IMG/VR virus record: IMGVR_UViG_3300031555_001469
Source of the DNA: a virus
Lineage: Duplodnaviria; Caudoviricetes
DNA: 64,000 nt
Reading direction: 5' to 3' (one strand)
Within the stretch, counting starts at the first letter, position 1; each line of letters begins with the position of its first letter. The notes below the pieces were generated by a model that saw only the letters and a list, made by a program, of their open reading frames with translations, was not told the origin of the DNA and ran no database searches. This document shows positions 4,005-20,702 of the stretch, piece after piece. The translations under genes were made by a program, and so were the position numbers.

Positions 4005-5147
4005 TCAACTATTCTTTTCTCGATTGATTTCACTCAGTAATTTATTAATATAACTGAGGGTTACCAAACATTGCTGATATGCTTGAGCATTTTCTATATA
4101 AGATCTAGTTGCAAATGATGTAGTAATAATATCATTTACAGTAGACTTTAACTGAACGATAGACGTAACAACGAAATCTATCTGAATTGCATTCTCAGAA
4201 GTCTTCATAACCGCTTTAATATCTTCTTCGATATTCTTAAGAGTCTTATAAAGATTCATAAAATTATCCAATAATTCAGTCTGTCTAATAGTAATTTGAG
4301 TAGGAGATAAATCAGCAAAAACCTGCTTCTCTAACTCTTTAATTTCATCATCTACTGAACCAGAAGTGTTATCATCTGTATTAGTGTCATCTTCTTCAGG
4401 AGCTTCTTCGGAGTCTTCTCCTTCTTCACCCTCATCAGATCCCTCTTCATCATCTGGGTCAGCTGCAGTATAATCTTCTATATCTTCACCGCCGTCTTCT
4501 GGAGATTCTTCTCCACCTTCATCAGATCCTTCATCTCCGTCAGGTTCAGATGCTGTATAATCTTCAGTATCACCATCATCTCCCTGAACCATATCTAAAT
4601 CTGATTCTCCATCTTCAGTTTCACCATCTCCCTCTGTATCATCATATCCAGAATCTGGATCATCTTCACTCGCAGGGTCTGGTTCATTTTCATCATCGGT
4701 AGCAGTATAATCTTCAGGTTCATCTTCCGATGCTTCTTCTGGTTCTTCATCAGGTACATCTTCAGAGCCGTCGTTTCCTTCTTCTCCTTCGCCCTCTTCA
4801 GTATCAGGAGCTGAAGCAGTATAATCCTCAGAATCATCGTCATCGTCAGTAGGGTTAATATCTGAAATATCATCTTCATTATCAGGTTCTCCTTCTTCAG
4901 ACCCCTCAGAATCTTCTGGTGCTGAATCAGCAGTATAATCTTCGGGATCTTCACCTTCAGGTGCATCCTCGCCTTCACTTGTTTCATCTGCCTCAGGGGA
5001 AGTAATTTCTTCCCCTTCAGCATCATCGTCCTGAGAATAATCGGTAGGCTTGTTATCGTCATCCTCTTCATCTTCTACAGTTTTTCCATTGATATCTAAT
5101 TCATGTATATAACCAAAGTTATATTTTTTTCCTGAATAAATTCCCAT
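4005..5147 (-). CDS. Highly acidic low-complexity protein with EDYTA repeats and helical C-terminus (scaffold/inner-head candidate)
   Basis: About 250 D/E-rich residues; DY[TS] motif six times; next to the capsid gene. Confidence 0.5.
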   Translation of the reverse strand: MGIYSGKKYNFGYIHELDINGKTVEDEEDDDNKPTDYSQDDDAEGEEITSPEADETSEGEDAPEGEDPEDYTADSAPEDSEGSEEGEPDNEDDISDINPTDDDDDSEDYTASAPDTEEGEGEEGNDGSEDVPDEEPEEASEDEPEDYTATDDENEPDPASEDDPDSGYDDTEGDGETEDGESDLDMVQGDDGDTEDYTASEPDGDEGSDEGGEESPEDGGEDIEDYTAADPDDEEGSDEGEEGEDSEEAPEEDDTNTDDNTSGSVDDEIKELEKQVFADLSPTQITIRQTELLDNFMNLYKTLKNIEEDIKAVMKTSENAIQIDFVVTSIVQLKSTVNDIITTSFATRSYIENAQAYQQCLVTLSYINKLLSEINREKNS

Positions 5148-8519: not shown

Positions 8520-8545
8520 CCCCTAGTAGATTTCTCTACTAGGGG
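8520..8545. terminator. Bidirectional terminator hairpin
   Basis: CCCCTAGTAGA-TTTC-TCTACTAGGGG between convergent genes. Confidence 0.75.
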
Positions 8546-8553
8546 TATATTAT

Positions 8554-8847
8554 TTATTTTTTGGACTTTAATGTCACTATTAATGAGTTTGCTTCATCAG
8601 TTACTTTTCTTTCTACCTTAACCAGGCAATTATACGCACTATAATTTTCGGTGGTAGAATGCTTATCTAAATCTGTTCTCGTGACTGATAATACATTGAT
8701 GTTTTCAAATATCTTTTCGATATCAATTACACTTTTAGACTCATTCATAAAAGTTAAAGACAATACTGTTGTGTTAGTAGAATCTTTTCTTTCGGTAATT
8801 AAAGTTAATGTATTAAGTTCAATCTTATTATTAACCGTTATCTTCAT
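8554..8847 (-). CDS. Small hypothetical protein, last gene of the rSAM-2 operon
   Basis: 97 aa, AAGGAGG SD, follows the Cys-rich gene. Confidence 0.65.
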   Translation of the reverse strand: MKITVNNKIELNTLTLITERKDSTNTTVLSLTFMNESKSVIDIEKIFENINVLSVTRTDLDKHSTTENYSAYNCLVKVERKVTDEANSLIVTLKSKK

Positions 8848-8876: not shown

Positions 8877-9962
8877 TTAATCTGTACAAACGCTATCACA
8901 GTAGCAATTGTCATCACAACCACAGTCATAATCACATACACAATTGTAATTACAGCAAGTACCATTACAACAATTATAGTCGCATGTACAATCATTACCG
9001 CATCCATCTGCGCAGTCTCCATAACATCCACAGTCACTACCGCATCCATCCGGACAGTCATAATTACAACAGTCTTTATTACAAGAACAGTCTGTTCCAC
9101 ATCCGTCTGCACAATCACTATTACAAGAGCAATCTGAGCCACAACCATCTGCACAATCACTATTACAAGAGCAATCATAACAGTTATCATGTTGGCAATC
9201 TGAGTTACAGCAATCATAACATCCATCAAAATTACAACAATCGCCATTGCAAGCTCCATACCAAACATCTCCACAGTCATTACAATCTGTGCAATCAATG
9301 CATCCTTCTTGACAGTCTCTATTACAAGGACAGTCATTTACACAACAATCTGTTCCACATCCGTCTGCGCAGTCTCTATTACAAGAGCAATCTGAACCAC
9401 AACCATGTGCACAATCACTATTACAAGAACAGTCTGTACCGCAACCGTCTGAGCCGCAACCATGTGCGCAATTACTATTACAAGAACAGTCTGCACCACA
9501 TCCATCTGCGCAATCGTTATCACACGGGCAATTGCTATCACAATAACAGTCATATACGCAACAATCGTAACACTTATTACTATCACAATCACAGTCATAA
9601 TCACAGCAGTTATTATCACAACTACAGTTGAAATTACAACAATCCTGATAGCAACTACAATAATCCTTATACACAGATGCTTGTGTTGAAGATAGAGTAT
9701 TAACTTGGCTAGGAGACATACCGCTTATATCGGTTGGTAATGTACTACCTTTATAATAATAATTCATTCTATCACTACTATCTTTAATACAAGCATTAAT
9801 CTGATTAATCATATTAAGCAGATACTGTTTATTAACAACAGTACCAGACGTTAAAGTTGTTGCTGATCCTGAAAATCCATATCTATTATAAGTTTTAATT
9901 ACATTAGAATTTATGGTATTCATATCAGCAGCTGTTAATTTTTCACCTGACGATATAGCCAT
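8877..9962 (-). CDS. Cys/Asp-rich repeat protein (about 80 Cys), putative radical SAM modification target B
   Basis: About 100-aa Cys-poor N-domain, then repeats such as DCSCNSDCADGCG[ST]; directly downstream of a radical SAM gene; SD fits ATG 9962. Confidence 0.8.
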   Translation of the reverse strand: MAISSGEKLTAADMNTINSNVIKTYNRYGFSGSATTLTSGTVVNKQYLLNMINQINACIKDSSDRMNYYYKGSTLPTDISGMSPSQVNTLSSTQASVYKDYCSCYQDCCNFNCSCDNNCCDYDCDCDSNKCYDCCVYDCYCDSNCPCDNDCADGCGADCSCNSNCAHGCGSDGCGTDCSCNSDCAHGCGSDCSCNRDCADGCGTDCCVNDCPCNRDCQEGCIDCTDCNDCGDVWYGACNGDCCNFDGCYDCCNSDCQHDNCYDCSCNSDCADGCGSDCSCNSDCADGCGTDCSCNKDCCNYDCPDGCGSDCGCYGDCADGCGNDCTCDYNCCNGTCCNYNCVCDYDCGCDDNCYCDSVCTD

Positions 9963-9995
9963 ACTTTTCACACTCCTATCTTTTGTTTACAAAGA

Positions 9996-11213
9996 TTATT
10001 CGTGTTTAGAACACTTACATTCTTTTTTACTAAGCTGTTCTATTTTTTCTTCTAATCGATTGCATCTCTTCTCTAAGTAATCGATCTTATTAACCATAGA
10101 CTCTAATAACTTACTTGTATTTCTTCGCTCAATGATATTAATAAATCTATAGTAGTGTTTATTAATAACCGTCATAAATTTCTCGTCATAATTATTAGGT
10201 CTAGTATATAAATCCCCACCAAATTCAAAGTTTACAGCTACACAAACCTGACAAGGATTATCAGACATCTTAGATTCATCAATAGCAGCAAATATAGCCT
10301 GAATTTCAGGATTAATAGGATTTTCATTATGAATATTTCCATATAAAACATCATTTCTTCTTTCAGAATTATAGAAGAAGAATCTATGGCAAGGATAGAT
10401 ATTTCCATCCGTATCCATTCCAACCATTCTTCTTCCTGAAGAACAACCAGAACATCTATCGAATCGCTTAAATGGGAATCTATTCTTATTCAACGTAATT
10501 TTAGATAAATCAGAATTAATCTTATCTAATTCTCTATCTAAAATAAGTACATCGTTATCGTCCCAATCATCTTCTATTACCCAAGCAAATTTAAAGTGAA
10601 CCTTTAAAGTTCTAATAAAATAAAGATAAGAATCATAAAGTCTTGGTAAAGAAGATTTAGAAATTACAGAATGAACGTGCAGTCTCTCATGAGATATATT
10701 GTGTTTGTCAAAGAATTCCTTAAACTTAGGAATAGCAGCTTCAACCAGATCAGAAGATTTAATACATGTATTAGCACATGGTCTATTACCATTCTGAATT
10801 TCTGGAATACCATCAATAGATAACTGAATATCTACATACCCAGTCAATCTGTACCACTCTTCTAAAAAGGCTTCAACCTTTTCATTATAAATAGTACCAT
10901 TAGTAATAATAGCAAACTTTATTTTAACACCAGTTTCTTTTTCTTTTTCTACACCATATCTAAGCATACTTATCATAAGATCAGTGCAGAGCATTGGTTC
11001 GCCACCAAAGAATGTAATATTAACAGTTCGCTTCTTATCGTTAGAAGCAATAGCATTTGCGACTAAAAAGTCAATCATTTTAAATGCAGTTTCTTCACTC
11101 ATATACTTTGAAACAGCTCTAGTATCCTTTTCAAAGCAATACGTACATCTTAAGTTACAGTTTTCTGTTAAAATAAAATAACAGGAAGTGATATTGGTAT
11201 CCATCATAACCAT
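9996..11213 (-). CDS. Radical SAM protein with SPASM/Twitch-like C-terminus (peptide maturase type), rSAM-2
   Basis: CNLRCTYC (CxxxCxxC), FFGGEP, SIDG, CSSG...DGNIYPCHRF, CQVC. Confidence 0.9.
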   Translation of the reverse strand: MVMMDTNITSCYFILTENCNLRCTYCFEKDTRAVSKYMSEETAFKMIDFLVANAIASNDKKRTVNITFFGGEPMLCTDLMISMLRYGVEKEKETGVKIKFAIITNGTIYNEKVEAFLEEWYRLTGYVDIQLSIDGIPEIQNGNRPCANTCIKSSDLVEAAIPKFKEFFDKHNISHERLHVHSVISKSSLPRLYDSYLYFIRTLKVHFKFAWVIEDDWDDNDVLILDRELDKINSDLSKITLNKNRFPFKRFDRCSGCSSGRRMVGMDTDGNIYPCHRFFFYNSERRNDVLYGNIHNENPINPEIQAIFAAIDESKMSDNPCQVCVAVNFEFGGDLYTRPNNYDEKFMTVINKHYYRFINIIERRNTSKLLESMVNKIDYLEKRCNRLEEKIEQLSKKECKCSKHE

Positions 11214-11292: not shown

Positions 11293-11322
11293 AATCCTAG
11301 TAGAATTTAATCTACTAGGATT
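11293..11322 (-). terminator. Terminator hairpin
   Basis: AATCCTAGTAGA-ATTTAA-TCTACTAGGATT. Confidence 0.7.
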
Positions 11323-11991: not shown

Positions 11992-13026
11992 ATGTATATA
12001 GGAATAGATGGTATAGCAAGACTTATATCAAAATTATATATTGGGATCAATGGAATAGCAAGAGAAATAACTAAAATGTATATAGGAGTAGATGGATTAG
12101 CAAGATTAATATATCAAGCTGGCGTAGCAGCTGGTGAAGTAGTTTTTACTTCATCAAAATCTTGGACTGTGCCAGCAGGAGTTAGTAAAGTGGACATCTT
12201 CTGTGTAGGAGGTGGGGGTGGTGCAGGTGGCTGGTATTTTAGATACAATGAATCTAATAGTGCCGGTAGTTATACAGATACTACAAAAAATGGCGGTTCA
12301 GGTGGCGGTGGGTATACTACAACAGCATTAGCTGTAGCAGTAACACCTGGCGAAACTCTTACTATTACAGTAGGTGCTGGTGGTGATAGAGGCGAAAGCT
12401 ACGAATATTATAAATCATATGGTGAAACTGCACAACATTGGGGGTCCGTAACAAGTTCAGGTGACATTACAGCAGGAGCAACAGGTGGACAATCATCTGT
12501 TAAAAATAGCAGCGGTACTGTATTATGTAGTGCTAATGGTGGTTCTGGTGGTGCTAAAGCTACGACTGGTACATCATCTGGAGCTTCTTATGTATCAGCT
12601 GGAGGTGCTGGTGGTTCTGGTGGTGGTACTAGTACTGGTTGTTATTATGTATTTAATGGATCACAGGGAGATATTACAACTCATAGATCTTGGTTTAGTG
12701 CCGGTGGATCTACTGATATTTATAGAGCTGTAGATGGCGAAAGCGGCCCAAGTACTGAATATTATAGTGCATCATCAGATAGCACACCTAACGTTTATAG
12801 TAAAGGTGGTACAGGCCAGGGCACGACTACAAGATATTTTGCGCAATCTGGAGGTACGTTATATGGCTCTGGAGGTACTCAACCATATGATGCTACAAAA
12901 GTTTCTATAGGATATGGTCCTTGGGCTAATACAGGACATGGTGGCGGTTACGTATGGTATGATGGTTGGACTGGCGGATCTGCAGGATCTTCTGGTGTAG
13001 TTATCATTAGATGGGCTGCTCAATAA
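11992..13026 (+). CDS. Glycine-rich putative receptor-binding/tail-tip protein
   Basis: Three N-terminal YIG[IV][DN]G[IL]AR repeats; FTSS.SWTVPAGV..VDIFCVGGGGG, GGGG motifs, GSSGVVIIRW end. Confidence 0.65.
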   Translation: MYIGIDGIARLISKLYIGINGIAREITKMYIGVDGLARLIYQAGVAAGEVVFTSSKSWTVPAGVSKVDIFCVGGGGGAGGWYFRYNESNSAGSYTDTTKNGGSGGGGYTTTALAVAVTPGETLTITVGAGGDRGESYEYYKSYGETAQHWGSVTSSGDITAGATGGQSSVKNSSGTVLCSANGGSGGAKATTGTSSGASYVSAGGAGGSGGGTSTGCYYVFNGSQGDITTHRSWFSAGGSTDIYRAVDGESGPSTEYYSASSDSTPNVYSKGGTGQGTTTRYFAQSGGTLYGSGGTQPYDATKVSIGYGPWANTGHGGGYVWYDGWTGGSAGSSGVVIIRWAAQ

Positions 13027-15339: not shown

Positions 15340-16752
15340 TTATTTATCTTTTTCTTCACTTCTACGTTTAAGTTCTTGCCAAGTAATATCTCCTTTATAC
15401 TCCAAACTAGGAAGAGAAAGTAACATTTCAAATTCCTCTTCTGGAATAATTTTGAGAGCCCACTCTCTTGAAACGTATAAGTTATACCTATTTTCAGGCT
15501 CTTTAAGTTCATAGTATTTAGCCCAATAATAAGCATTTGCTAAAGCTCTTGCTTTATGCATTTCACAGATATATGTCGCACGCTTATTAGCAGTACCATA
15601 TGTCTGATAATTGTAAGCTGAGCACCATGAGCACCCATCTGCAATAGGGCAATAAAAGCATTCATCAGTACTCTGAGTTTTTCTATCAATACAATTTAAG
15701 CAATTGATATTACAAGAATAATCTTCGGAAGTACCAATACCTTCATCAACACTACCTATTCTTAAAGGTTTTCTTGAACAACCTAAAGAACTTTCCATAT
15801 ATCTAATACAAGGATAAAGATAACCATCTGGGTCACAGGCTAACATAAGGCAGTTACCACCACACCAATTTGTTATATCATCCTCATGTTTAGGTACAAA
15901 AAATTTCTCATCGAAAATGGATAAGAACACATCTTCAACCACATCTTTTTCAATTATATAATCAGCAGCTTGCTTTAACTGATAATATAATTCGGTAGCA
16001 TGGTGTTGTTCCCATCCTTCTTCATACACACAATTAGCATTAATATCTTTATAACCTAATTCAATCATGTGTTTTAAAGCAGAAAATACATGCTGTATAT
16101 TAGCCGGGGCAATAGTGATTTTACTTCCCATATAGTACCCTTTGGACATCCAATCTGTAGCACCAGCAATAGCAATATCATAGCTAGGAGATCCATCGTG
16201 GAATACTCTACAGCTATCATGCAATTCTTTATTCCCGTCTATTGTAATAGAAAAAGAAATATTGTTTTTATACTTATCTAAGAATTTCTGCACTCTTTCG
16301 TCAAAGTATAATACACCATTAGAGCAGATAGATATCATAAACTTATCAACCCATGGATGGTTCAATCTAATACATTCACGAAAGAAATAACTTACTATCT
16401 TATCAATTAACTCTATTTCTAAAAAAGGTTCCCCACCAATAAATTCAATTATAACAGCAGGAGATTTAGAAGGGTTAATATATTCATCAAATCCTTTTTC
16501 TCCACTAAGCAATAAATCGATAAATTTCTTAGCAGTTTCAAAAGACATTTTTCTTTGGCCTTTGTTAATCTGGTAGCAATAAGTACATGCCAGATTACAA
16601 GCGTCTGTTACCTGAAAAGTAACTGTACGAGATAAAGTAGAATTTGTTGATTTACCAGATTCATCTACTGTAACCAACTCAGGATATAATCTTGCAATCT
16701 TATCCTGATACTGTTCAAATTCTCGCCTGTTTCTTTTTCTCTCTCTAAGCAT
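15340..16752 (-). CDS. Radical SAM/SPASM peptide maturase, CXXX-repeat target type, rSAM-1
   Basis: CNLACTYC, FIGGEP, WCGG...DGYLYPCIRY, CFYCPIADGCSWCSAYNY...C; resembles the TIGR04115 family as I recall it; start 16752 overlaps the upstream stop. Confidence 0.9.
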   Translation of the reverse strand: MLRERKRNRREFEQYQDKIARLYPELVTVDESGKSTNSTLSRTVTFQVTDACNLACTYCYQINKGQRKMSFETAKKFIDLLLSGEKGFDEYINPSKSPAVIIEFIGGEPFLEIELIDKIVSYFFRECIRLNHPWVDKFMISICSNGVLYFDERVQKFLDKYKNNISFSITIDGNKELHDSCRVFHDGSPSYDIAIAGATDWMSKGYYMGSKITIAPANIQHVFSALKHMIELGYKDINANCVYEEGWEQHHATELYYQLKQAADYIIEKDVVEDVFLSIFDEKFFVPKHEDDITNWCGGNCLMLACDPDGYLYPCIRYMESSLGCSRKPLRIGSVDEGIGTSEDYSCNINCLNCIDRKTQSTDECFYCPIADGCSWCSAYNYQTYGTANKRATYICEMHKARALANAYYWAKYYELKEPENRYNLYVSREWALKIIPEEEFEMLLSLPSLEYKGDITWQELKRRSEEKDK

Positions 16753-17101
16753 TATGATCATCTCCTGATAATTCAAAGTTATCAAATGCTGTTCCGATTG
16801 TAGAGAATGTTAAAATACCAGAAGTAAAATCCAAGTTCCAATTTGCTACTGCATTAGCCTTCATGATTTCTTCTGGAATATAATTATTAATTAATTCGTT
16901 CTTTCCTAATTCATAAGCAGCAACTCTTTCATTATACTTCTTATTATAAAGAACAAATGTTTCAGATTCAAGAATAGCAGGGTTATTAGCATTATCTGTA
17001 ATAAGCTCCTTAATAATCCTTGACATTCCTTCAAGTTCGAAAGATAATCTTTCGAGATAATCTACAGTTTCACTATTTACTTTCATAGCAAAATTTTTCA
17101 T
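16745..17101 (-). CDS. Accessory protein of the CXXX-repeat modification system (TIGR04116-like, from recall)
   Basis: 118 aa helical protein ending in NWNLDFTSG; translationally coupled to rSAM-1. Confidence 0.55.
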   Translation of the reverse strand: MKNFAMKVNSETVDYLERLSFELEGMSRIIKELITDNANNPAILESETFVLYNKKYNERVAAYELGKNELINNYIPEEIMKANAVANWNLDFTSGILTFSTIGTAFDNFELSGDDHNA

Positions 17102-17152: not shown

Positions 17153-18103
17153 TTATATAGTTTTACCAGTAGCTCCCCCAAAGCATTGAGAGGTACAAGA
17201 AGTATTACATGTAGAACTACAAGTAGAGCTACAACTACTCTTACAATTTCCAGAACAACTACTTGAACATCCATAACATCCACCATCGCATCCAGAGCAA
17301 CCAGAACATGATCCACCGCATCCAGAGCATCCATAGCAGTCTCCAGAGCATCCGCTACCACAACCACTACTACATCCAGAACAACCAGAACATGAACTAC
17401 ATCCATCACATCCAGAGCAACTAGTACATTGCCATCCACATCCACCAGTACATCCGCCACCGCAAGAAGCACTACAGCCACTACTACAGTTAGCAGAACC
17501 ATCTGTTGATCCTGAACATGAACCTGTACAGCTAGTACAACCAGCACCGCATCCACCGCATGAAGAACAACCACTTCCGCATCCAGAGCATCCGCCGCAT
17601 CCACTACTACATCCACCACATCCAGAACATCCACTACATCCAGAGCATGAACCGCAGCCAGAACATCCCTTACAACCGTAAGTACAAGATGATCCGCAAC
17701 CAGAGCAGCCACCACATCCACCACATCCAGAACATCCACTACAACCAGTATTACACATACCATAACATAATCCAGTACATGCACCTCTACAAGAAGAAGA
17801 TGAACCTGTTACAGATTCAGCTGCCCATTTATCTAATACACTATTTAAAGTAGCATAGTCGAAACTAGAAGGCAATTTTTCTCCAGCAACGACATTTCTT
17901 AAATTACCTACGTCTGCTACTTTTAAAATTAAATCAATAGTTTTCTGCCCATGCTCCGCTAAAATTTTGCCGCCGGTAGCAGGACTAGTAGTAAAATCAT
18001 AAGTAGCAGCAGTATAACCACTTAGTGAGCCATAATATTGTCTTCTGGCAAACTCAGTTTTTATTTTTGCTTTTATCGCAATTAATTCAGACGGAGTCAT
18101 CAT
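17153..18103 (-). CDS. Cys/Gly/Ser-rich repeat protein (about 57 Cys), putative rSAM target A2
   Basis: About 103-aa Cys-free N-domain, then CxxC/CxxxC repeats ([10 protein letters not shown]). Confidence 0.85.
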
Positions 18104-18164
18104 AAGTATTATTTCCTTTCTTCTAATATAGTATTTATAGGATTCTTAAGTAAGTATAACCTAT

Positions 18165-18176
18165 TATTTAAATGTT
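18165..18176 (-). promoter_or_regulatory. Late-type promoter AACA-N6-TA for target A2
   Basis: Minus strand AACA-TTTAAA-TA. Confidence 0.55.
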
Positions 18177-18198
18177 TCTGTAGCCGATTCAGAGGTAA

Positions 18199-18229
18199 AT
18201 ACCAGAGTATCGTAATGATACTCTGGTAT
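18199..18229 (-). terminator. Hairpin after target A1
   Basis: ATACCAGAGTATC-GTAAT-GATACTCTGGTAT. Confidence 0.65.
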
Positions 18230-18235
18230 ATCCAT

Positions 18236-19057
18236 TTAACTTTTTGTTGATGTTCCATAACACTGTGCAGTACACGTACTATAACAAGTACTACTGCAAG
18301 TAGTATTACAGCTATTGATACATCCCGATGAACAGCTAGATGAACAGCCTCCTCCGCATCCAGAGCAGCTAGAACATCCGCTTGAACAATCAGCACATCC
18401 ATTACACCCGCTACAAGAACTACAATGACCATCACATCCAGCACATAGCCCTTGACAGCCATTTACGCATGTACTATAGCATCCTCCACTACACGTACTA
18501 GAACACATAGTACAATTAGCTTGACAGGCTCCAGAACATGACATACTACAACTGGTACAACCATTACAGCCAGAACATCCACCTTGACATCCTACTGAGC
18601 ATGTATTACCACAAGCTGTATCACATCCACTACATGTACCGCAACCTGTACATCCGTTACAACTATTTTCGCAACCTGAACACCCACTACATCCAGAACA
18701 AGTAGAACCACAAGTACCTACACATAAGCCAGTACATGCACCTCTACAAGAAGATGTAGCTCCGGTAATTTCTTCAGTTGCTAAAATGTCTACATAATTA
18801 ATTAAAGCTTCATCAAAACCACTCGGTATTAATAAACCAGTCGATACACTAGGTAATCCCTCATGATCTTTTATCTTTAATAGTAATTCAATAGTTTTTT
18901 GACCATGCTCTGCTCTTATTAATTCTCCTGCAATTGGAGTAAATAAAAAATCATAATTAGCAGACGTATAGCCAGCTAACGATCCATAGTATTTTCTTCT
19001 AGCAAACTCATCCTTAATTTTACTCTTTAGTGTAATTAGCTGAGCTGCTGATAACAT
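18236..19057 (-). CDS. Cys/Gly/Ser-rich repeat protein (about 46 Cys), putative rSAM target A1
   Basis: Paralog of 17153..18103 ([32 protein letters not shown]). Confidence 0.85.
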   Translation of the reverse strand: MLSAAQLITLKSKIKDEFARRKYYGSLAGYTSANYDFLFTPIAGELIRAEHGQKTIELLLKIKDHEGLPSVSTGLLIPSGFDEALINYVDILATEEITGATSSCRGACTGLCVGTCGSTCSGCSGCSGCENSCNGCTGCGTCSGCDTACGNTCSVGCQGGCSGCNGCTSCSMSCSGACQANCTMCSSTCSGGCYSTCVNGCQGLCAGCDGHCSSCSGCNGCADCSSGCSSCSGCGGGCSSSCSSGCINSCNTTCSSTCYSTCTAQCYGTSTKS

Positions 19058-19082: not shown

Positions 19083-20702
19083 TTAGGATACCATAATAAG
19101 TATCTTAACTTTTCCAATATCATCGGTATCTTTATTTTCTAAAGCTTTACCGATAATTGTTCCAGGAATAACAATATTTCTATCCTGAGTTATTCCTACA
19201 CCAGGTACATCTGAAGGGATAATAAGATCACCTTTAGATACAGTACCTTTTACTTTTACATATAATCGTCCTGCTAAACCAACAGGTACGAACTTCTTAT
19301 GGTTATCTTCCATATCTTCTAATTGTTCTCCTCCGACAATATGGCCATAGGAATCAGAATAAACACCAACGACCATAGTATCTCCATAACAACTAGATTT
19401 AGTTACACCAGATTCTGCCCAAGAGACAATATCTCCCGGTTCAAATTCTTCGTGTATATTCTCTTTCTCAAACCACTCGGCATAGTCGTTCCAAACTGCG
19501 TTGTAAACTTTACTACCAGTGATTGTACCAGAAGCATTAATAGCTCCAGCTTTAAAAGTTACAGAATTTATTGATAAAGTACCACTAGCAGATTCAATAA
19601 TTCTTGATGTATAATCTGCAGTAGAACTACCAAAATGGAAATCAATATATGGTGTAGCTGCAAAAAGCTCCATACATTGACTTTCGAAAGTAGTACCTTT
19701 AATTGTAGCAGCACAATAAAAACTCTTTCCGCCAGATACTTTTACATATGTAGTATCTTCCATAAAAATACCGCCACCATAAGTACTATTGTACCACCCG
19801 TTACTGTATATATTTGCACATTTAACTGGAGCGTTAGCTGCTCCATCTTGAGCCATAAAATTAAATACGCCTGTATTATCCATTAATAACGAAGCTGCTA
19901 TAACACCATTCCAATGGAATCCTATAGAAGGAGCATATCCTATTGTAGATTGAGTATTGCCAACTAATCCATTTTCTCTTATAGTTATGGCAGCATTGTT
20001 AAACCTATTTGCAGCTGTAGCTGTATATATACCGGCTGGTTCAAATAATCTTTTTCCGTTCATATTTATATCTCCAGTCATGATACCACCAGAGAGTTTT
20101 AAATATGATTTAGAAATATTACTAACTGCTTCAGATACGGTAGTACCTGAATCACTAACATCAGTAGATCCGACCCTAGCAATTAAACTTATTAAATCGC
20201 TTACTGCTTTAGAAACAGTAGCAAATAATGTAGTTAATTTACTTCCGCTACTAATTTTTGTTAATTCTGTAGCTTCTGTATAAGCAACCGTAGTATTGCT
20301 CGCATTTCCTGATAAAGTAAGATAGTCACTAAGATCCACTTTTTCTGTTTCAAGAATCTGAAGCTCTTCGCCATCCCACCAATAGTCAGGATTGTACATA
20401 TCTTTGATTAATAAAGTCGTACCTATTTTGAGTCCAGCTTTATTTGTCTCTACTGCTAACCATGCATCTAAATCAGCTTTGGTTTCAAATACAATAGCAG
20501 ATACTTTATCGAGCGCTGTTTGTAACGCTAAATTAGCTAAATCTTTTACTTCTGGAACTTCACCTAAAAGATAATCGATATCAGCCCTATTTTCAGTAAT
20601 ATTTTTTGGAAATGTGTTATCCACTAAATATTTATCTTCTTTAGACATTAACCCATCTCTTGCAGATGTAGCAAAAGATCTAGGCAAATTATTATGAAGC
20701 AT
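19083..20702 (-). CDS. Tail fibre protein B with C-terminal intramolecular chaperone (peptidase G2-like)
   Basis: MLHNNLPRSFAT..RDGLMSKEDK N-terminus; PYIDFHF...DYTSRI; WNDYAEWF...VGLAGRLYVKV...IIGKALE. Confidence 0.75.
   Translation of the reverse strand: MLHNNLPRSFATSARDGLMSKEDKYLVDNTFPKNITENRADIDYLLGEVPEVKDLANLALQTALDKVSAIVFETKADLDAWLAVETNKAGLKIGTTLLIKDMYNPDYWWDGEELQILETEKVDLSDYLTLSGNASNTTVAYTEATELTKISSGSKLTTLFATVSKAVSDLISLIARVGSTDVSDSGTTVSEAVSNISKSYLKLSGGIMTGDINMNGKRLFEPAGIYTATAANRFNNAAITIRENGLVGNTQSTIGYAPSIGFHWNGVIAASLLMDNTGVFNFMAQDGAANAPVKCANIYSNGWYNSTYGGGIFMEDTTYVKVSGGKSFYCAATIKGTTFESQCMELFAATPYIDFHFGSSTADYTSRIIESASGTLSINSVTFKAGAINASGTITGSKVYNAVWNDYAEWFEKENIHEEFEPGDIVSWAESGVTKSSCYGDTMVVGVYSDSYGHIVGGEQLEDMEDNHKKFVPVGLAGRLYVKVKGTVSKGDLIIPSDVPGVGITQDRNIVIPGTIIGKALENKDTDDIGKVKILIMVS

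Follow-up and report, generated by a model that had tools for sequence, protein, structure and literature searches.

The DNA analysed here is a stretch of 64,000 nt (the window) belonging to a virus record of 229,764 bases that is 93% complete and comes from a gut jumbo phage. Animal-faeces metagenomes contain the stretch; contigs of four animal-faeces runs, of which one may be the source of the record, carry most of it, with no differing letters listed, and no RNA is present among its listed holders. A radical SAM enzyme (rSAM-2) and a cysteine-rich protein (B) are both encoded on the minus strand in the tail-fibre region, with a prohead-protease-like gene on one side and two fibre genes on the other. 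A second radical SAM enzyme (rSAM-1) and its putative substrates A1 and A2 are located in the same window and serve as comparison. The coordinates of all these features are collected in Table 1.

The hairpin upstream of rSAM-2 suggests that the rSAM-2 cassette is a separate transcription unit, and promoter-like sites occur at chance level (20 versus 22). The product of the third cassette gene, a 97-aa protein, has an Atlas fold that recurs in a 293-aa Fer4_12 cluster (TM 0.64). Elsewhere in the window, a 380-aa protein with a very long Asp/Glu-rich region adjoins the capsid-region genes (4005-5147), and a Gly-rich (PF21722) adhesin-like gene with a triple N-terminal repeat lies on the opposite strand (11992-13026).

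Table 1 Features of the rSAM-2/B cassette and of the comparison genes in the window.
Feature	Position	Strand	Basis or remark
rSAM-2, radical SAM enzyme with truncated (twitch-type) SPASM domain, without N-terminal RRE	9996..11213	-	PF04055; probable start 11207 (403 aa)
rSAM-2 auxiliary-cluster region: C257, C275, C321, C324 conserved; H276-R277 invariant; AuxII CxxCx5C absent	10230..10454	-	
rSAM-2 long C-terminal helix, residues 342-396, probable coiled coil, family-wide	10026..10190	-	model
Protein B, 361 aa, 81 Cys: putative substrate and fibre-tip adhesin	8877..9962	-	
B N-terminal domain, three-repeat three-helix bundle; putative docking or enzyme-recognition domain	9663..9962	-	AF2, Atlas, BFVD
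B Cys-rich core: 80 Cys, 51 in C-x-x-[D/N] (35 D, 16 N); 14-aa repeats	8877..9659	-	
97-aa third cassette gene, conserved; candidate assembly chaperone or enzyme partner	8554..8847	-	homologues adjoin B in most loci
Terminator-like hairpin, bidirectional, closing the cassette	8520..8545	.	
Terminator-like hairpin upstream of rSAM-2	11293..11322	-	
Tail fibre with Peptidase_G2 autocleaving chaperone; tip motif VYNAVW at 19488-19508	19083..20702	-	PF11962, tip alignment
rSAM-1, TIGR04115 member, full SPASM domain (comparison partner)	15340..16785	-	499 bits vs cut-off 350
A1 and A2, CxxC/CxxxC Gly/Ser substrates of rSAM-1 (comparison); without +3 D/N bias	17153..19057	-	

Conservation and distribution of the cassette

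The B gene directly follows rSAM-2 in 18 of the 19 informative related loci, and a Peptidase_G2 (G2) fibre directly precedes rSAM-2 in 15 of the 17 loci with upstream DNA, these loci being not independent and representing about 11-12 lineages that range from small prophages up to jumbo phages. In most loci the cassette also includes a homologue of the 97-aa gene. The matches came from alignment-based scans of viral contigs, a single-sequence scan having returned nothing. At locus L190 the adjacent B gene has only 8 Cys, and in L182 rSAM-2 persists with its cluster cysteines intact though B is gone. The rSAM-2/B unit is a real, conserved and separately mobile cassette, which bears out the dedicated pair described in an earlier note on this DNA. 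That note missed the place of the cassette behind the Peptidase_G2 fibre, the 97-aa gene and the probable adhesin role of B. Relatives of the cassette are contained in MAGs of Lachnospiraceae, Oscillospiraceae, and Clostridia, and the phage hosts are therefore probably gut anaerobes.

rSAM-1 is found in the flank of only two related loci (L005 and L180), and three phages, including the one of the window, keep both systems. In a Lachnospiraceae MAG with the cassette in a prophage (L100), no TIGR04115 member scores above the cut-off. At E values up to 1e-100, the TIGR04115 family of rSAM-1 counts at least 3,626 members, compared with about 63 for rSAM-2, which indicates that rSAM-1 mostly occurs without rSAM-2. 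Each system thus occurs alone, and the two are probably orthogonal. Strict orthogonality is also likely, although motif differences alone do not prove it, because PapB accepts many spacings in vitro (PMC9413430).

Several neighbouring arrangements were observed. Many close relatives of rSAM-1 in the TIGR04115 family carry inteins. Three more small CxxxC-repeat ORFs are scattered downstream of the two cassettes of L005 (15005-18535). A gene in L192 (3187-4455; P0137, also P0135) fuses a B-type N-domain and short CxC repeats to a Hint-like domain, and is flanked by three radical SAM genes. The cultured jumbo Erwinia phage Caitlin (L194, 4957-8320) possesses a 68-aa ORF ending in CxxxC repeats, located upstream of two radical SAM genes; its gp171 groups with the TIGR04115 clade, which makes the phage a possible laboratory model for the A-type system.

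The rSAM-2 enzyme

The phylogeny of both radical SAM enzymes, called for in the earlier note, places them in separate clades: the rSAM-2 family (63 members at E<1e-87) forms its own supported clade, apart from that of TIGR04115, to which rSAM-1 belongs. Over the barrel, rSAM-1 and rSAM-2 have 24% identity, in line with the claim that they are distinct. rSAM-2 scores above no NCBIfam cut-off, the best model being that of PapB (NF047865; 148.8 bits, cut-off 340). TIGR04115 gives 95 bits (cut-off 350), far from the score of rSAM-1, and TIGR04463 (CrpC) gives 45.3 bits (cut-off 525). Judged by these comparisons, rSAM-2 is outside the PapB, TIGR04463, and TIGR04115 families. It is predicted to work like a ranthisynthase acting on a protein. 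The cultured phages of INPHARED contain no rSAM-2 orthologue, the best full-length matches having less than 28% identity, and the match in Campylobacter phage CP220 has no Cys-rich neighbour among the adjacent genes. In locus L022 (3357-4549) an rSAM-2 orthologue is broken by one in-frame stop, which may reflect an assembly error, decay or recoding. In locus L195 (5758-16440), which has a bacterial chromosomal setting, about nine radical-SAM-like paralogues stand in tandem after yqfD/ybeY/dgkA; seven have Pfam matches, two are degenerate, and two members belong to the clade group sister to rSAM-2.

In the AF2 model of rSAM-2 (pLDDT 93) the barrel, which bears the CxxxCxxC motif at residues 19-26, comes first and a 55-residue helix comes last, in agreement with the coiled coil noted earlier. 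Because the model starts directly with the barrel, rSAM-2 lacks an RRE. Its best structural match, and the nearest solved structure, is CteB (TM 0.71). C257, C275, and C324 are present in all 63 family members and C321 in 61. The previously listed motifs CSGC, PC, and CQVC are present, whereas the first Cys of CSGC (C254) is kept in just 38 of the 63 homologues and is therefore an unlikely cluster ligand. The AuxII motif CxxCx5C is absent in all 16 rSAM-2 sequences checked. Together, the four conserved auxiliary cysteines, which are set around the beta-hairpin, and the missing AuxII motif point to a single auxiliary cluster of the twitch type.

Six catalytic-site-proximity positions have been defined for such enzymes (PMC10288494). 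In rSAM-2 they are occupied by F27-F69-I103-S132-H276-R277, four of the six being identical to those of CteB (F-F-T-S-H-Q). The corresponding residues of rSAM-1 (Y-I-C-T-I-R) match CteB at none of the positions and differ from rSAM-2 at five of the six, which further supports the presence of two distinct enzymes. The CteB-like residues support thioether formation by rSAM-2 and, at the same time, a different active site in rSAM-1.

Protein B, its cysteine register and its probable place in the fibre

B probably starts at the ATG at 9962, the position at which all its homologues begin. The possibility of a wrong-frame artefact was rejected, since the N-domain, the start codon, and the synteny are all conserved. 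Pfam, NCBIfam, and PHROG gave no match for B, and a length-restricted homologue search with B returned one protein. The 260-aa core contains 31% C, 20% D, 11% N, 10% G, and 8% S, with 17 CxC and 9 CC steps, in agreement with the composition and motifs described before. It also differs, as had been stated, from the cores of A1 and A2, where D and N together make up just 4-7% and the Cys spacings are only 3 or 4. The recurring 14-aa unit of the earlier note is indeed found, twice in exact form and in nine stretches that match at least 8 of its 14 positions, and the gene contains 42-bp arrays at 9077-9176 and 9344-9451. The unit is specific to the phage of the window and was rejected as a family feature; what recurs throughout the family is CxC[DN]x[DN]C or CC[DN]x[DN]C. 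B-type substrates are 150-430 aa long, and the homologue cores span 50-330 aa without a conserved cut site. A fourfold length range goes together with shuffled repeats.

The positions of D and N relative to Cys were assessed in the window's B and 23 homologues by an enrichment test, in which Cys positions were fixed and the remaining residues shuffled. In the window's B, the 80 core Cys are followed three residues later by D or N in 51 cases, compared with 32 expected. Across the homologues, this +3 position has a mean z of 4.1, with z>2 in 20 of the 23, and D or N accounts for 66% of the non-Cys +3 residues of the pooled family against a background of 38%; repeats and kinship inflate these statistics, and the repeat units vary among homologues while the register is kept. 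Measured against background, the +3 position accepts Asn and Asp about equally well. D or N directly before Cys is found 39 times here versus 31 expected, with a mean z of 0.6 over the 23 homologues, and this code was rejected. The PapB register CX3D was rejected as well: D/N at +4 is depleted across homologues (mean z -2.0), and CX3D/E occurs 7 times in the window's B versus 10 expected. PapB, which had been offered as the precedent, thus fails in register and, at 149 bits, in family membership. No bias at +3 is seen in the A-type substrates (z -1.3 to +1.4), not even in the D/N-rich A protein of the L005 phage, which also carries two B genes. The Asp/Asn-Cys code claimed for this pair therefore exists and is absent in A-type substrates, but its register is three residues after Cys, not before it.

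Two predicted rings in CxC[DN]x[DN]C would interlock. Because 29 of the 80 core Cys lack D/N at +3, these residues need another fate, such as metal ligand, disulfide or other acceptor. In addition, two further pairings were observed. In L008 (11288-12073), the partner of a more distantly related rSAM is a protein rich in Cys and Arg (C-x-C-x-x-R), which points to another acceptor code. L017 (4877-10843) combines three genes: one for a G2 fibre that shares the VYNAVW tip motif, one for a small protein that has a three-helix domain and ends in Cys-His-Ser-Asn repeats, and one for a radical SAM enzyme; they represent a third code on the same scaffold.

The AF2 model of the B N-domain (pLDDT 82) contains three helices (residues 11-27, 45-60, and 84-100). 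Similar folds in Atlas and BFVD, found at modest scores and mostly in phage proteins, carry Ig, FN3, LRR, Flg_new, Peptidase_S74, and CXXX-repeat payloads. The A and B N-domains share a predicted fold (TM 0.67), although a profile comparison of the B and A1 N-domains revealed no sequence similarity. The B N-domain has no significant PDB or BFVD match (best PDB Z 6.2, to generic helical bundles), an absence that does not show a new fold.

In the L007 prophage, baseplate genes are followed by a short G2 fibre, rSAM-2, B, the 97-aa gene, holin-like genes, and an endolysin, and the G2 fibre has no recognisable receptor-binding domain of its own. Fibres beside the cassette have in common a near-invariant VYNAVW tip just before the chaperone, which is lacking in the tailspike Dpo31. 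Of three related phages, two (L004 and L196) have retained both the G2 tip and B, whereas L182 has the same fibre with a different C-terminus, a deletion of B, and an inverted adhesin-like gene related in its N-terminal part to the Gly-rich gene of the window. The joint loss of B and the G2 tip in L182 indicates that B is probably a fibre-tip adhesin and likely to be located in the virion. The only G2 fibre of the window is about 8 kb from rSAM-2/B and adjoins A2, hence A1, A2, and B may be alternative tips, and this fibre probably carries B and/or A1/A2. A complex prediction of the fibre-tip trimer with the B N-domain scored 0.02, a value that counts neither for nor against docking.

In gp37/gp38 of T-even phages and S16, a fibre with an autocleaving chaperone is followed by a small gene whose product has a three-helix N-domain and a low-complexity C-terminal part. 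B resembles such a gp38-type monomeric adhesin in being encoded with an intramolecular-chaperone fibre and in co-varying with the fibre tip. The payload of B is rich in Cys, Asp, and Asn and comes with a modifying enzyme, whereas that of gp38 is polyglycine, and no sequence or significant structural match was found between the two proteins.

Proposed function and its alternatives

We propose, at a probability of about one half, that rSAM-2 installs Cys(i)-Asp/Asn(i+3) thioethers in B, a virion adhesin; taken separately, the thioether chemistry is somewhat better than an even bet. rSAM-2, B, and the 97-aa gene would form a self-contained tail-fibre-tip module, in which the Peptidase_G2 chaperone cleaves itself off and monomeric B then docks on the trimeric fibre via its three-helix N-domain, leaving the Cys/Asp/Asn tail as the variable, host-contacting part. 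In the anaerobic host, rSAM-2 would recognise B without an RRE, through the B N-domain, possibly aided by the coiled coil or the 97-aa protein. The enzyme would cleave SAM, abstract a beta-hydrogen of Asp/Asn(i+3), and, with its one auxiliary Fe–S cluster, join the beta-carbon, the presumed attachment site, to the Cys(i) thiol. The B tail would then be stiffened, without disulfides, by as many as about 50 small ranthionine rings, some of them interlocked, and the remaining 29 Cys may use other acceptors, metal, or disulfides. rSAM-1 would treat A1/A2 by a different, spacing-based rule, so that the phage could fit alternative tips. A more far-reaching version, tentative and on balance doubtful, holds that one fibre is served by two mutually exclusive enzyme/tip codes, with tips stapled by dozens of radical-SAM thioethers, rSAM-2 making about 50 Cys(i)-Asp/Asn(i+3) joins per chain. 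To our knowledge, such a number of links per chain is far above that of any characterised maturase.

The closest precedent is CrpC/CrpA of Methanococcus voltae, in which CrpC makes ranthionines on the large repeat protein CrpA, a C-x-x-D site included (PMC13692751). In both systems the radical SAM gene adjoins a large Cys-repeat protein with an N-terminal domain, the CrpA motif being C-x-x-Q/D. CrpC is cellular and archaeal and has an RRE and three clusters, whereas rSAM-2 is without RRE and AuxII, reaches 45 bits against the TIGR04463 cut-off of 525, and resides in a phage fibre module. PapB/PapA (freyrasin), CteB/CteA (SCIFF), and QhpD/QhpC share the logic of Cys with an Asp acceptor and possibly interlocked rings, and CteB is additionally similar in fold and proximity residues. 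Unlike these systems, rSAM-2/B uses CX2[D/N] rather than CX3D, has no RRE and a single predicted auxiliary cluster, and its substrate is 150-430 aa long and offers as many as about 50 sites. The phage-associated TIGR04115 CXXX-repeat system also lies beside Cys-rich proteins with the same N-domain fold; it differs in its separate clade, full SPASM domain, Y-I-C-T-I-R residues, accessory helical protein, and substrates without the +3 D/N code. A literature search found no paper on the CXXX family name, nor, within its coverage of few subscription journals, one on a phage case of such a pair.

The pair and its virion role could be as proposed and the chemistry other than a simple beta-thioether: Asp/Asn oxidative decarboxylation or desaturation, alpha-carbon (sactionine) links or epimerisation, for example, in which case the cysteines would pair through metals or disulfides. 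The absence of AuxII and RRE and the near-equal acceptance of Asn and Asp at +3 would fit such chemistry, and the cluster cysteines of BtrN have a spacing similar to those of rSAM-2. The four conserved auxiliary Cys could thus fill every ligand position of the cluster, as is the case in BtrN, and a substrate thiol would then find no open site. H276-R277 and F-F-x-S nevertheless match thioether-forming enzymes, the fixed Cys-to-+3 register is what a ring-forming enzyme predicts, and SkfB makes thioethers with only a twitch domain, showing an open site despite four conserved Cys (PMC6231123); we regard a different chemistry as rather unlikely. Like SkfB and BtrN, rSAM-2 has one auxiliary cluster site with four conserved Cys, but it looks like a CteB-type SPASM enzyme that has lost AuxII, whereas SkfB forms one alpha-thioether on a short peptide and BtrN is a small-molecule dehydrogenase.

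B might instead be a metallothionein-like carrier of metal or Fe–S clusters with Cys/Asp/Asn ligands, which rSAM-2 loads or matures rather than cross-links. The Cys content with its CC and CxC steps, the 29 Cys without a +3 acceptor, and the suggestion that CrpA itself binds metals (PMC13692751) are consistent with a carrier; the fixed place in the fibre module, the co-loss with the fibre tip, the peptide-maturase active site of rSAM-2, and the adhesin-like length range and repeat shuffling make it improbable. Still less probable is a lack of orthogonality, with either enzyme modifying either substrate and rSAM-2 merely a co-inherited passenger here. The promiscuity of PapB, the shared fold of the A and B N-domains, and the retention of rSAM-2 without B in L182 speak for it, but either system is found without the other, the active sites have only one of six positions in common, the N-domain sequences are not detectably alike, and three phages retain both systems. 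Finally, the leader/core layout and the RiPP-type maturase recall a classical RiPP precursor, whose N-domain would serve as a leader that is cut off and whose core would act, once released, as an antibacterial or superinfection-blocking peptide. No cassette contains a protease or exporter, the long cores have no conserved cut site, and B sits among structural genes, so we consider a released peptide very improbable.

Four elements are new in this case, for which a thioether-bearing adhesin is the preferred reading: the code has a defined +3 register, the enzyme does without both RRE and AuxII, a tip has been swapped in nature, and a single genome holds two systems. rSAM-2 would be a natural minimal maturase, with neither an RRE nor a second auxiliary cluster, and allows a test of whether AuxII and an open site at AuxI are required for thioether formation. 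Both enzymes and the three substrates come from a single genome and can control for one another, and co-expression in E. coli is cheap; moreover, a processive CX2[D/N] cyclase would serve peptide engineering. If the proposal is true, RiPP-type radical chemistry builds a structural, host-recognising part of the virion, and thioethers substitute for disulfides, in a reducing environment, in phages of gut anaerobes. B and its relatives would then represent an undescribed class of phage adhesins and a new route to host-range variation.
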